A stretch of 11,644 nucleotides of DNA, taken from the IMG/VR virus record IMGVR_UViG_2576861092_000008; one strand, written 5' to 3'. The notes under the pieces were generated by a model that worked only from the letters and a program-made list of their open reading frames with translations, did no database searches and was not told where the DNA came from. Below, piece after piece: positions 2,894 through 11,060 of this stretch. The stretch is from a virus (taxonomy: Duplodnaviria > Heunggongvirae > Uroviricota > Caudoviricetes). Each line of letters starts with the position of its first letter. Position 1 is the first letter of the stretch. The position numbers and the translations under genes are program-made.

Positions 2894-2966
2894 TATTATT
2901 TTACTCATGTTCTAACTGATTTAATATTTATATCGAACACTGATAATTATTCTATTGGTTAGCTAT

Positions 2967-3305
2967 ATGAACAAAACGATTTTATTCTGCACGATTATTG
3001 CCTTAACAGGATGTAAATCTTTGGATTACGTAAAATCCGGAAAACCTGTAATGGAAGGTAATTCATTAAAAAATATTGATGAATTGTCAGGCTGCATATC
3101 CAGACAATGGGCTGGTAATGGAACACCTATAACATCCCTTCCTATTGAGAATGGGGTAAGCCTTTTAGTTCCACAGGCTATGGGGGGATATGATGTTGTG
3201 CTTGATATCAAAAAAGCAGGAAATGGCAGTAGTTTTACTCTTTATGAACGTGTACCAGCATTAACGCCAAAAATTTTTGCTGATAGTGTTAATGCATGTA
3301 AATAA
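2967..3305 (+). CDS. Predicted lipoprotein of unknown function (moron inserted between I and J; candidate outer-membrane lipoprotein)
   Basis: ORF lying in a sharply AT-rich segment (2894-3330) between I and J. N-terminus MNKTILFCTIIALTGC is a signal peptide with lipobox L-T-G-C; the +2 residue is Lys, not Asp, so outer-membrane sorting is expected. Mature part is about 96 aa with two further Cys. Followed by a hairpin terminator. Start is either ATG 2967 or an upstream TTG at 2955; no strong Shine-Dalgarno. Confidence 0.65.
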   Translation: MNKTILFCTIIALTGCKSLDYVKSGKPVMEGNSLKNIDELSGCISRQWAGNGTPITSLPIENGVSLLVPQAMGGYDVVLDIKKAGNGSSFTLYERVPALTPKIFADSVNACK

Positions 3306-7622: not shown

Positions 7623-7650
7623 AAGCCCGTGGGTTCTGGCGGGCTTTTTT
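7623..7650 (+). terminator. Rho-independent terminator downstream of lom
   Basis: Stem AAGCCCG (7623-7629) / CGGGCTT (7640-7646) with a 10-nt loop, then a T-run ending at 7650. Lies just upstream of the stf RBS (GGGGTG) and ATG 7662. Confidence 0.6.
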
Positions 7651-7661
7651 GTGGGGTGAAT

Positions 7662-10600
7662 ATGGCAGTAAAGATTTCAGGTGTACTGAAAGACGGCACA
7701 GGAAAACCGGTACAGAACTGCACAATCCAGCTGAAAGCAAAACGTAACAGCACCACGGTGGTGGTGAACACGCTGGCCTCAGAAAATCCGGATGAAGCCG
7801 GGCGTTACAGTATGGACGTTGAGTACGGTCAGTACAGCGTTATTCTGTTGGTGGAAGGATTCCCGCCGTCACATGCCGGGACCATCACCGTGTATGAAGA
7901 TTCCCGACCCGGTACGCTGAATGATTTTCTCGGTGCCATGACGGAGGATGATGCCCGTCCTGAGGCACTGCGCCGTTTTGAACTGATGGTGGAAGAGGTG
8001 GCGCGTAACGCGTCCGCGGTGGCACAGAACACGGCAGCCGCGAAGAAGTCAGCCAGCGATGCCGGCACATCAGCACGTGAGGCGGCAACCCATGCGACTG
8101 ATGCTGCAGGCTCAGCACGCGCAGCCAGCACGTCAGCCGGACAGGCCGCGTCGTCGGCTCAGTCAGCATCTTCCAGCGCAGGAACGGCATCAACAAAGGC
8201 CAGTGAAGCATCGAAAAGTGCTGCTGCTGCAGAGTCCTCAAAAAGCGCGGCAGCTACCAGTGCCGCTGCGGCGAAAACGTCAGAAACGAATGCGGCAGCG
8301 TCACAACAATCAGCAGCCACTTCTGCATCCGCCGCGACCACGAAGGCGTCAGAAGCAGCCACCTCAGCACGGGATGCGGCGGCCTCAAAAGAGGCAGCGA
8401 AATCATCAGAAACGAATGCATCATCAAGTGCCAGTAGTGCAGCTTCCTCGGCAACGGCGGCAGGAAATTCCGCGAAGGCGGCAAAGACGTCCGAGACGAA
8501 CGCCAGGTCTTCTGAAACGGCAGCGGGACAGAGTGCCTCGGCTGCGGCAGGCTCAAAAACAGCGGCTGCGTCGTCTGCCAGTGCCGCGTCAACAAGTGCC
8601 GGGCAGGCCTCAGCCAGTGCCACCGCCGCCGGAAAATCGGCAGAAAGCGCCGCATCATCCGCTTCAACAGCCACAACGAAGGCTGGCAAAGCCACTGAAC
8701 AGGCCAGTGCAGCAGCAAGGTCTGCTTCCGCAGCGAAGACATCCGAGACGAACGCGAAAGCGTCGGAAACCAGCGCAGAATCCTCAAAAACGGCTGCCGC
8801 ATCGTCCGCCAGTTCGGCGGCGTCATCGGCATCATCGGCGTCTGCTTCAAAAGATGAGGCGACCAGACAAGCGTCCGCAGCGAAGGGCAGCGCCACGACA
8901 GCATCCACGAAGGCGACAGAGGCAGCTGGCAGTGCGACGGCGGCAGCACAGAGCAAAAGTACGGCGGAATCCGCGGCAACGCGCGCCGAGACAGCGGCAA
9001 AACGGGCAGAGGATATTGCATCCGCCGTGGCGCTTGAGGATGCAAGTACGACGAAAAAGGGGATAGTACAGCTCAGCAGTGCGACCAACAGTACGTCTGA
9101 AACGCTGGCGGCAACGCCAAAGGCAGTAAAATCAGCCTATGACAATGCAGAGAAACGTCTGCAGAAAGACCAGAACGGCGCTGATATACCCGATAAGGGA
9201 CGCTTCCTGAACAACATTAACGCGGTCAGTAAAACAGACTTTGCTGATAAGCGTGGTATGCGTTATGTGCGGGTTAACGCTCCTGCAGGTGCAACATCTG
9301 GAAAATATTACCCTGTTGTTGTTATGCGTTCTGCTGGCTCAGTAAGCGAACTGGCATCAAGGGTCATTATCACCACGGCAACGCGAACCGCAGGCGATCC
9401 GATGAATAACTGCGAGTTTAACGGATTTGTTATGCCTGGTGGCTGGACTGACAGGGGGCGTTATGCTTATGGAATGTTCTGGCAATATCAAAACAATGAA
9501 CGAGCCATCCACTCAATAATGATGAGTAATAAGGGCGATGATTTGCGCTCTGTGTTCTATGTTGATGGCGCTGCTTTCCCTGTTTTTGCGTTTATCGAAG
9601 ATGGCCTGTCAATATCCGCACCTGGTGCTGATCTCGTTGTTAATGATACGACCTATAAGTTTGGGGCAACAAATCCGGCGACTGAATGTATCGCGGCGGA
9701 CGTTATCCTTGATTTTAAGAGTGGGCGTGGTTTTTATGAGTCTCATTCGTTAATCGTTAACGATAACTTGTCGTGCAAAAAACTTTTTGCCACAGACGAA
9801 ATTGTAGCGCGTGGTGGTAATCAGATTCGAATGATAGGTGGGGAGTATGGTGCATTATGGCGTAATGATGGCGCTAAAACTCACCTGCTGCTTACCAATC
9901 AAGGTGATGTTTATGGTGGCTGGAATACATTAAGACCGTTTGCTATTGATAACGCAACCGGCGAACTGGTTATTGGAACCAAACTGTCCGCAAGTCTGAA
10001 CGGTAATGCATTAACAGCAACAAAGCTGCAAACGCCAAGACGGGTTTCTGGTGTTGAGTTTGATGGTTCCAAAGATATTACTTTAACCGCCGCGCATGTG
10101 GCTGCTTTTGCCAGAAGGGCAACGGATACATATGCCGATGCGGATGGTGGCGTTCCCTGGAATGCCGAATCAGGCGCTTACAATGTCACCCGCTCTGGCG
10201 ACAGCTATATTCTGGTTAACTTCTATACCGGAGTCGGAAGTTGCCGGACCTTGCAGATGAAGGCACATTACAGAAATGGAGGTCTGTTCTACCGTTCCTC
10301 AAGAGATGGCTATGGTTTTGAGGAAGACTGGGCAGAAGTTTATACCTCGAAAAATCTTCCACCAGAAAGCTACCCAGTCGGCGCACCAATCCCGTGGCCA
10401 TCAGATACCGTTCCGTCTGGTTATGCCCTGATGCAGGGGCAGGCTTTTGACAAATCTGCATACCCGAAACTTGCAGCGGCTTATCCGTCAGGCGTGATCC
10501 CTGATATGCGTGGCTGGACGATTAAGGGCAAACCTGCCAGTGGTCGGGCCGTATTGTCTCAGGAACAGGACGGCATTAAATCGCATACCCACAGCGCCAG

Positions 10601-11060
10601 CGCATCCAGTACGGATTTGGGGACGAAAACCACATCGTCGTTTGATTACGGCACTAAATCCACGAATAACACTGGTGCGCATACCCATAGTTTAAGTGGC
10701 AGCACGAATGCAGCTGGTAATCACAGCCATAGAGATGGCCGTCGATTTAACCCCAGTGTTTTTAAAGATACTTATCAATATGGTTATACAAGCTCAGGTC
10801 AAAATACCTGGGGTGTACAAGGCTCAGTAGGTATGTCTACGGGGTGGTTAGCTAATACCAGTACAGATGGTAATCATAGCCACTCACTGTCCGGCACAGC
10901 AGCATCTGCAGGTGCACACGCGCATACTGTCGGTATTGGTGCTCATACGCACTCCGTTGCGATTGGTTCACATGGACACACCATCACCGTTAACGCTGCT
11001 GGTAACGCGGAAAACACCGTCAAAAACATCGCATTTAACTATATTGTGAGGCTTGCATAA
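7662..11060 (+). CDS. stf: Side tail fibre protein Stf (intact, 1132 aa; mosaic)
   Basis: ATG 7662 gives [26 protein letters not shown]..., the lambda Stf (orf401) N-terminus as I recall it. Contains a long Ala/Ser/Thr-rich repeat region, a lower-GC central module, and a His-rich C-terminus ([27 protein letters not shown]) ending ...[11 protein letters not shown]. The GTG at 7629 used by the ORF track lies inside the terminator hairpin and is rejected. Confidence 0.9.
8011..9010 (+). repeat. Ala/Ser/Thr-rich degenerate tandem repeat region within stf (coding low-complexity)
   Basis: Motif A-K-[TS]-S-E-T-N-A recurs with codon starts at 8271, 8397, 8481 and 8733, spacings of 126, 84 and 252 nt, all multiples of 42 nt. 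The high GC and low complexity generate long spurious ORFs in other frames on both strands. Confidence 0.7.

Follow-up and report, generated by a model that had tools for sequence, protein, structure and literature searches.

The side tail fibre protein (Stf) of phage lambda is among the closest described systems. Residues 102-393 of lambda Stf are assigned to a proximal coiled-coil domain; a trimeric bundle joined to three collar domains is resolved in the cryo-EM map, and most of the rod is described from AlphaFold3 modelling and low-resolution tomography (PMC12617516). The structure PDB 9e7m covers lambda Stf residues 1-94 only (PMC12617516). In tomograms the lambda proximal fibre appears as a rigid body, and the side fibres of adsorbed Ur-lambda change in hinge angle only (PMC12617516). 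A second relative is the PCoil segment of EPclA and EPclB, collagen-like tail fibre proteins of EHEC prophages. A PfN-PCoil fragment of EPclA is alpha-helical by CD, trimeric by SEC-MALLS and undergoes a transition near 49-52 °C that is cooperative and reversible; a PCoil core of Ala and Ser rather than Leu and Ile was noted in the same work (PMC3368898).

The window, the whole 11,644-nucleotide stretch of viral DNA that was analysed (Caudoviricetes; IMG/VR record IMGVR_UViG_2576861092_000008), carries a lambda-like tail module, H'-M-L-K-I-J-lom-stf-tfa. All features are on the plus strand unless stated. The stf gene (7662..11060, ATG at 7662) encodes 1132 amino acids plus a stop, and its nucleotide sequence is 99.0% identical to that of the phage PhiR34_1 side tail fibre gene. 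A promoter and terminator scan of the lom-stf interval gave nothing useful. The protein matches PHROG tail fibre families and the Pfam families phage_tail_N (PF08400, residues 1-134), Gp34_trimer (663-762) and Collar (907-954). Its residues 1-94 align with chain Ta of 9e7m (E = 2e-51), residues 441-521 match tail fibre protein S of Mu (5yvq), and the C-terminus resembles the tip of T4 gp37 (2xgf). The N-terminal collar domain (residues 1-91, 7662..7934), with limits taken from lambda gpStfN (PMC12617516), attaches the fibre to the tail. A conserved junction at residues 467-490 (9060..9131), identical or nearly so in lambda, served as an anchor for the extraction of homologues, which diverge past this point.

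[quoted passage not shown] It is very probable that these heptads make up the proximal three-stranded coiled-coil rod of the fibre. A preliminary description of this DNA had placed a repeat region at 8011-9010, which is roughly correct and slightly too narrow. Position 1 is Ala in 47 of the 49 heptads (Val in the other two), position 4 is Ser in 37 and position 5 is Ala in 35. The first heptad begins inside the PF08400 match and the array continues directly after it; no Pfam domain model matched residues 135-455. The array consists of 38% Ala, 24% Ser and 11% Thr, and contains 2 Val, 1 Ile and no Leu. A stable coiled coil would not usually have a core so nearly devoid of Leu, Ile and Val (3 aliphatics in 343 residues). 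Variation among 62 distinct homologous arrays follows the same layout: positions 1, 4 and 5 are conserved, varying in 6, 6 and 5 of the 49 heptads, whereas positions 2, 3, 6 and 7 vary in 20, 21, 19 and 17.

The periodicity of the array was determined by several means. Residue autocorrelation over residues 111-505 gives z = 10.3, 8.2, 9.3, 9.0, 9.1, 8.4 and 10.3 at lags of 7, 14, 21, 28, 35, 42 and 49. For an indicator of Ala, Fourier power reaches 42.4 at period 3.5 and 19.1 at 7, as against 0.9 at 3.6 and 0.2 at 14; the peaks of the array lie at periods 3.5, 7 and 2.33. The real repeat is the heptad, of 7 residues or 21 nt, and the 14-codon (42-nt) period originally proposed is an alias of it. 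Enrichment at lag 14 over a residue shuffle (z = 8.2) is merely a harmonic of 7; the lags of 7, 21, 35 and 49 are equally strong or stronger, and against shuffled heptad order a lag of two heptads shows no excess (z = -0.66 for protein, -0.74 for DNA). A higher-order repeat, for example of 22 heptads, was sought, since with such a repeat a 15-heptad block absent from lambda Stf might be a recent duplication. The highest z values at any lag were 2.0-2.3, and none was significant against the heptad-order shuffle (family-wise p = 0.36).

The 14-codon proposal stemmed from the sequence A-K-[T/S]-S-E-T-N-A, which does occur at the four reported sites, nt 8271, 8397, 8481 and 8733, with the reported spacings of 126, 84 and 252 nt, equal to 6, 4 and 12 heptads. 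Copies 1, 3 and 4 read AKTSETNA (residues 204-211, 8271..8294; 274-281, 8481..8504; 358-365, 8733..8756) and copy 2 reads AKSSETNA (246-253, 8397..8420). The copies are near-invariant in the 62 homologous arrays, being found in 61 (as AKTSETN), 51, 62 and 62 of them for copies 1 to 4. Four copies exceed chance, as none of 20,000 column-preserving heptad shuffles reached four, and AK[T/S]SETN is a genuine, recurrent and conserved heptad type within the array. Its even spacing, by contrast, is due to chance: if four of the 49 heptad places are drawn at random, the probability that all are of one parity is 0.11, so that the observation that all spacings are multiples of 42 nt is not significant. 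Degenerate copies lie only 7 residues after copies 3 and 4, namely ARSSETA (residues 281-287, 8502..8522) and AKASETS (365-371, 8754..8774), and violate a 14-residue spacing rule.

A structural unit of 14 residues, duplicated, diverged and changing in copy number by 14, is favoured by four exact copies at even heptad distances and by the raw lag-14 signal, but is contradicted by the low Fourier power at period 14, by the lack of a two-heptad excess, by the parity probability and by the degenerate copies. Homologues argue against it as well. Odd and even heptad counts occur alike across the family (44 versus 36), as do odd and even spacings of a loose form of the motif (244 versus 220); AKxSETN heptads are directly adjacent in one homologue (L073), and lambda differs from the window by an odd number of heptads. 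The Pfam family Phage_fiber (PF03335), a short repeat with the 14-residue period at issue, does match the same protein, but the match is confined to residues 1002-1015 in the His-rich C-terminal tip, outside the Ala/Ser region and unrelated to it in sequence, and its score of 18.8 bits falls short of the cut-off, 20. The lag, Fourier, parity and homologue tests have already refuted the 14-residue unit, which can be given very little credence, and the region is better annotated as 49 heptads than as a 14-residue repeat.

Array lengths in homologues were taken from retrieved loci and from representatives at 50% identity; a protein search with the N-terminal domain yielded nearly only contig-end fragments of 110-235 amino acids, useless for this purpose. 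Heptads were counted with a generic score for positions 1, 4 and 5, as a profile derived from the window's own heptads gave values too low for the more divergent arrays L101 and L104. Arrays of the PF08400 fibre family range from 4 to 49 heptads and mostly start in register from residue 113, 120 or 127. Among 102 Stf open reading frames recovered from loci of close relatives, about 85 with both anchors have exactly the same array length; the exceptions are nine lambda contigs, shorter by 105 residues, and three small-indel variants. Length differences are in multiples of 7 apart from these three (L004, L029 and L069), whose recent indels of +4, -3 and +9 residues are multiples of neither 7 nor 14. 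Either a strictly unbroken phase is not an absolute requirement or these three copies are defective.

At the DNA level the heptads are only about 44% identical to one another, and Tandem Repeats Finder detected no heptad array in stf. The only tandem repeat that it found in the gene is a 22-nt tract at 8818..8839, 2.4 copies of the 9-mer CGGCATCAT, which encodes SSASSAS; the three-residue deletion (ASS) of L029 lies at this site. With unit identity this low and length the same in about 85 relatives, the array does not behave as a DNA tandem repeat or contingency locus. The suggestion that the repeats were duplicated and then diverged is plausible for an old event, and expansion and contraction by recombination fits the long timescale reflected in the range of 4 to 49 heptads but not the constant length among close relatives.

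The array also contains three long open reading frames in other frames, which the preliminary description had called spurious, and the data agree. They comprise a 335-amino-acid frame in +2 relative to stf (8059..9066) and two antisense frames on the minus strand, of 309 (8159..9088) and 263 amino acids (8254..9045). Public record LR597635.1 annotates antisense coding sequences within the array, and the length of the three frames could suggest real overlapping genes. None of the three, however, matches a Pfam family, and all gain or lose stops among homologues: of 69 homologous arrays, about 20 have acquired a stop in the first frame, stops vary in the second, and the third has 0-6 in frame. 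When 76 arrays of the same length were compared as DNA (69 distinct sequences, 90-99% nucleotide identity), the 332 variable sites fell 64, 50 and 218 at stf codon positions 1, 2 and 3. Codon changes in the 8059..9066 frame are 311 synonymous against 3267 non-synonymous, and the antisense frame that shares its wobble positions with stf is the only one to mimic synonymous change. The alternative frames are open because of the GCN, TCN and ACN codons of the array, its GC content of 0.62 and its strong excess of A over T (AT skew +0.36 to +0.47); they are artefacts of composition. A second role for the region, be it as overlapping genes or as a hypervariable tandem repeat that often alters fibre length, has next to no chance of being correct given these data, the single short repeat found and the identical array length in close relatives. 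Long off-frame reading frames of this kind should not be called genes, as they are in at least one public phage record.

The earlier suggestion of a fibrous shaft or coiled coil is correct as to the kind of structure: the region is the shaft of Stf, and a coiled coil has the best support, in view of the heptads, the conserved positions 1, 4 and 5, helix prediction and colinearity with lambda. The array has a stripe of small residues, Ala and Ser in place of Leu and Ile, beside a variable polar surface. A single-sequence AlphaFold2 model of residues 92-520 as a monomer has helices at fragment positions 7-161, 167-294 and 305-414, with moderate confidence (mean pLDDT 68.8, pTM 0.26). The two breaks are fold-backs of the modelled monomer, an artefact. 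An alpha-helical rod is therefore predicted for residues 98-505 (7953..9176), the experimental CD data being those of the homologue EPclA only. At 0.148 nm per residue the array would be some 51 nm long, and the complete helix, if straight, some 60 nm.

The same stretch could be regarded as a disordered or flexible low-complexity linker, given its Ala, Ser and Thr content, the lack of a Pfam model and the merely moderate AlphaFold2 confidence. A 7-residue pattern that stays in exact phase over 343 residues, selective conservation of positions 1, 4 and 5 and a length invariant in about 85 close relatives would be unexpected in such a linker, and helix is predicted throughout. The homologous EPclA fragment is helical and shows a cooperative transition at about 49-52 °C (PMC3368898), and the lambda proximal fibre is rigid (PMC12617516). 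A linker of this type is very unlikely.

Less likely still is an array that forms, or switches to, a beta-structured fibre such as a beta-prism or beta-helix, as reported for a coiled-coil segment in the central fibre of the F7 pyocin. In a siphophage-type central fibre a trimeric coiled coil converts to a beta-prism, which needs small residues at defined positions (PMC12874032), and the array is rich in small residues. The pattern SxSxxMxxLxS, however, calls for Leu, Ile or Val at L and M (PMC12874032) and is not found in the array, with its three aliphatics; a period of 7 with power at 3.5 is a helical signature. Lambda is said to show no such extensive fold switching (PMC12874032), and for the side fibres of adsorbed Ur-lambda a change in hinge angle is all that tomograms report (PMC12617516).

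In the coiled-coil rod, three parallel Stf chains would form a left-handed coiled coil of alpha-helices. A core stripe of very small residues would be formed by Ala at position 1, Ser at 4 and Ala at 5 (a, d and e), with positions 2, 3, 6 and 7, occupied by Lys, Glu, Thr, Asn and Gln, facing the solvent. From sequence the stripe could be read as a/d/e or as g/d/a. By analogy with the published homologues, the rod would be trimeric and alpha-helical in solution and would act as a spacer between the collar domain, which clamps the tail tip, and the distal receptor-binding part. As a spacer, its number of heptads would set the reach of the fibre.

A more active role can be imagined, in which the rod is a length ruler and the AK[T/S]SETN heptads are specific structural sites; the two together are improbable. 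The exactly conserved length of 49 heptads could be a molecular ruler that matches the reach of the side fibre to the central fibre, in which case the 34 heptads of the lambda-like class would be a second discrete length. In the near-invariant AK[T/S]SETN heptad, Lys occupies position 2, Glu takes the place of the core-flanking Ala (position 5) and Asn occupies position 7. Such heptads might provide inter-chain salt bridges or polar layers by which an otherwise featureless Ala/Ser coiled coil keeps its axial register, or they might be docking sites for another component of the virion or host.

Read as a rod, the array is the Ala/Ser-rich three-stranded coiled coil already described for lambda-type side tail fibres, and it adds little new biology: heptads and a trimeric coiled coil were published for a homologue in 2012 and for lambda Stf in 2025. 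Of practical use is that counting heptads gives the length of the fibre, a help in the design of chimeric Stf fibres for host-range engineering; junctions and deletions in such chimeras should keep to multiples of 7 residues.

Compared with lambda, the window Stf is orthologous and colinear, with the same collar domain, the same heptad start at residue 113, the same register and the same junction at residues 467-490. Three of the four AK[T/S]SETN copies are common to both. Pairwise MAFFT alignment shows a single in-register gap of 105 residues: the window has 49 heptads and lambda 34, a difference of 15 heptads or about 15.5 nm. The block absent from lambda lies at about residues 304-408 (8571..8885), its edges being placed only to within a few residues, since its flanks resemble one another. 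Distal to the junction the two proteins differ, the window Stf having 1132 residues against 774 and a domain of the Gp34_trimer type.

PCoil of EPclA and EPclB likewise follows the PF08400 (PfN) domain (PMC3368898), and the array of a collagen-type fibre of this kind (L101) is in the same register as that of the window. It differs in being shorter (about 17 heptads in L101) and richer in Glu, and in being followed by a collagen triple helix and not by a distal fibre of the lambda/T4 type.

The StfR protein of the Rac prophage of E. coli K-12 and many E. coli prophage proteins with the tail-fibre N-terminal domain have the same 49-heptad array. The full-length 1038-nt array, at 90-99% identity, is found in 3593 of 5426 complete E. 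coli genomes, among them K-12 derivatives in which the gene is annotated stfR. Within the array these proteins differ from the window by point substitutions only, mostly synonymous or at surface positions of the heptad; beyond it they carry other C-terminal receptor-binding modules and have total lengths of 652 to 1176 amino acids.

The 11.6-kb window is a lambda-type tail module. By Pfam, its gene order runs from the end of the tape-measure protein through M, L, K (JAB + NlpC/P60), I and J to Lom (Ail_Lom); then follow stf, a 1132-amino-acid open reading frame at 7662–11060, and a Caudo_TAP tail-fibre assembly gene that starts at 11060. The 1132-amino-acid frame is Stf, the side tail fibre protein. 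Pfam places PF08400 (phage_tail_N) at residues 1–134, Gp34_trimer at 663–762 and Collar at 907–954, and the protein also matches PHROG tail-fibre families. The first 94 residues match the resolved portion of lambda Stf (PDB 9e7m) and the last 230 the T4 gp37 tip (2xgf). At the nucleotide level, stf shares 99.0% identity with the gene for the side tail fibre of Escherichia phage PhiR34_1. The C-terminal tip of Stf, at window positions 10650–11000 (residues ∼1000–1110), carries the same His-rich HxH repeats as the T4 gp37 needle (2xgf, E = 3e-84).

Two features lie between genes of the module. A hairpin, AAGCCCG-N10-CGGGCTT followed by a T run, is found at 7623–7650 (+) between lom and stf and ends 12 nt upstream of the ATG of stf. 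It probably serves as a terminator downstream of lom; a consensus scanner missed it because its loop is longer than 8 nt. An open reading frame of 112–116 amino acids at 2955–3305 (+), with a probable ATG start at 2967 and a lipoprotein-type signal (MNKTILFCTIIALTGC...), sits in the 478-nt gap between the end of gpI (2893) and the start of gpJ (3372). The gap is a low-GC island (0.38–0.43, vs ∼0.57 around it). The frame has a match to phrog_914 (E = 7e-33), a family of unknown function, and none in Pfam, and resembles a moron that has inserted into the tail operon.

The Ala/Ser-rich stretch of Stf at residues 113–455 (nt 7998–9026), here termed the array, has a period of seven residues and not 14. 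Laid out in sevens, it forms 49 heptads in unbroken phase. Ala occupies position 1 in 47 of them (Val in the other two) and position 5 in 35, and Ser occupies position 4 in 37; the remaining positions (2, 3, 6 and 7) carry Ala, Ser, Thr, Lys, Glu, Gln and Asn. Autocorrelation over residues 111–505 peaks at each multiple of seven and nowhere between (z = 10.3, 8.2, 9.3, 9.0, 9.1, 8.4 and 10.3 at lags 7 to 49), lag 14 being one among equal peaks. In a Fourier analysis of the Ala indicator, periods of 3.5, 7, 2.33, 3.6 and 14 have power of 42.4, 19.1, 12.3, 0.9 and 0.2, respectively. When the order of the heptads is shuffled as the null, heptads two places apart resemble each other less than average (z = −0.66 for protein, −0.74 for DNA), and none of the higher-order heptad lags survives multiple testing (family-wise p = 0.36).

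The 14-codon unit of the preliminary description had been read from the motif A-K-[T/S]-S-E-T-N-A. Its four starts at nt 8271, 8397, 8481 and 8733 are exact and correspond to residues 204, 246, 274 and 358. Four heptads placed randomly among 49 share the same parity with a probability of 0.11, and the spacings in multiples of 42 nt are therefore an alias of a 21-nt period viewed through four points. Degenerate copies, ARSSETA at residue 281 and AKASETS at residue 365, each lie one heptad past a full copy. Comparison with homologues also contradicts a 14-residue unit, which is rejected: lambda Stf is colinear with the window protein save for one in-register gap of 105 residues, equal to an odd number of heptads (15). 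With the N-terminal domain as query, HMMER retrieved 692 relatives from 1.84 billion cluster representatives, and the 80 long ones with a detectable array have 4 to 49 heptads (modes 33–34 and 49), 49 being the largest. As the sequences are related to one another, the counts across this family are descriptive only: 44 arrays have odd and 36 even numbers of heptads, and successive spacings of the looser motif A..SET[NAS], which are multiples of seven in 464 of 465 cases, comprise 244 odd and 220 even numbers of heptads. Within Stf, the 14-residue Phage_fiber repeat of Pfam has its sole match, below threshold, at the C-terminal tip, which may be where the broader notion of 14-residue repeats in fibres comes from.

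The motif itself is not an accident of composition, because none of 20,000 within-column residue shuffles of the heptads yields four AK[TS]SETN copies. The four are almost invariant in 62 distinct homologous arrays. AK[T/S]SETN is a conserved flavour of heptad, in which Glu replaces the Ala of position 5, and Lys and Asn occupy surface positions.

Small apolar residues that recur with a 7/2 period mark a left-handed alpha-helical coiled coil. In the 62 arrays, 6, 6 and 5 of the 49 heptads vary at positions 1, 4 and 5, vs 17–21 at positions 2, 3, 6 and 7. A buried a/d/e stripe with an exposed surface would be expected to show just such selective conservation, which lends independent support to a coiled coil; a/d/e, rather than g/d/a, is suggested by the helical-wheel positions of the conserved stripe. 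For residues 98–505, AlphaFold2 (single sequence, monomer) predicts a helix that is interrupted twice, where the lone chain folds back on itself (mean pLDDT 68.8). The folding back is an artefact, of a kind reported for full-length lambda Stf as well (PMC12617516). The earlier reading of the region as a possible fibrous shaft or coiled coil was right in kind. [quoted passage not shown]

Array length is largely fixed. Of 102 Stf frames recovered from IMG/VR and GTDB loci coding for the same N-terminal domain, ∼85 have a distance of exactly 354 residues from the array start (VARNA) to a conserved junction further downstream (GIVQLS); total length ranges from 652 to 1176 amino acids because distal modules differ. 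A disordered linker does not explain this fixed length, nor the phase-exact pattern and selective conservation. Expansion and contraction by recombination had also been proposed. Length has changed in heptad units over family history, but the array is not a labile repeat today, because heptads are only ∼44% identical in DNA, Tandem Repeats Finder reports no array, and 69 distinct DNA versions (90–99% identity) are all of the same length.

Three close variants on IMG/VR prophage contigs have breaks in heptad phase: L004 gains four residues by an SAST duplication near residue 222, L069 gains nine by an AAAESSKSA duplication near residue 197, and L029 loses three (ASS) near residue 390, at the gene's only DNA tandem repeat (8818–8839, 9-nt unit). 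The changes of +4 and −3 represent the same coiled-coil phase shift (+4 modulo 7), and +9 a shift of two. The Stf of L073 (IMG/VR, 1101 amino acids) has its first ∼23 heptads in common with the window, then a different array, with AK[KNSA]SETN heptads directly adjacent to each other at residues ∼280–343, and an unrelated distal part. The switch marks a mosaic junction within the coiled coil. Partial megablast matches covering only nt 1–509 of the array point in the same direction. In another homologue (L101), ∼17 heptads are followed by collagen triplets.

Three long off-frame open reading frames, at 8059–9066 (+, in the +2 frame), 8159–9088 (−) and 8254–9045 (−), do exist and are spurious, as had been warned. 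None matches a Pfam family. Variable sites in the 69 versions fall 64, 50 and 218 at stf codon positions 1, 2 and 3. The +2 frame gains a stop in ∼20 of the 69, and the antisense frames carry 0 to 6 stops; synonymous-like change is seen only in the antisense frame that shares the stf wobble positions, as expected. These substitution data and the length data contradict overlapping genes or a contingency repeat, and both are rejected. What keeps these frames open is the array's make-up of GCN, TCN, ACN, AAR and GAR codons; the GC content of the array is 0.62, second-position GC 0.80 and AT skew +0.36 to +0.47. Two database records mis-annotate the region. LR597635.1 (phage ev099, L118) has two antisense 'hypothetical protein' coding sequences inside the array at 798–1660 (−) and lacks the stf N-terminal coding sequence; in PV340541.1 (mEp332, L119; 982–1664), stf is broken into two pieces and a gap with no annotation covers the array.

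The array is already known, from a prophage gene that is very common in E. coli. Of 5426 complete E. coli genomes, 4090 contain it and 3593 have it at full length, among them K-12 derivatives, in which the gene bears the annotation stfR. Among the homologous proteins P0001–P0120 are more than 100 clusters, some of them hundreds to thousands strong, of 'partial' PF08400 proteins of 110–235 amino acids, cut off by contig ends soon after the array begins. This multi-copy prophage region, or its vicinity, is apparently a point at which short-read assemblies break. Laboratory-lambda-type Stf with the frameshifted 401-amino-acid orf-401 is found on GTDB genome contigs (L083–L100, L105–L109, L113–L117) from assemblies of unrelated organisms (Leeuwenhoekiella, Pseudomonas, Shewanella, Desulfosporosinus, Oceanobacillus, Kitasatospora, Bradyrhizobium and others), often on contigs of ∼48.4–48.5 kb or tiny low-coverage contigs, and is almost certainly lambda DNA contamination.

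The structural interpretation of the array is already published, and the value of its analysis lies mainly in careful annotation and fibre engineering and is low beyond these. By analogy with homologues, three chains most likely assemble into a parallel coiled coil whose Ala/Ser core is unusually small. The rod, rigid by the same analogy, most likely works as a stiff spacer that separates the collar, which grips the tail tip, from the hinged receptor-binding part at the distal end, and the number of heptads would set fibre reach. At 0.148 nm per residue, the array is ∼51 nm and the whole helix ∼60 nm long. In EHEC prophage fibres, the homologous region after the same PfN domain, termed PCoil, has an alpha-helical CD spectrum with a reversible transition near 49–52 °C, is a trimer by SEC-MALLS and appears as a rod on rotary shadowing (Ghosh et al., 2012; PMC3368898). 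In the Ur-lambda structure of 2025, Stf residues 102–393 are assigned to a proximal coiled-coil domain, which is joined to three collar domains via linkers of roughly 10 residues and moves as a rigid body (PMC12617516). The window array is the same element as this lambda coiled coil, longer by a block of 15 heptads, or ∼15.5 nm.
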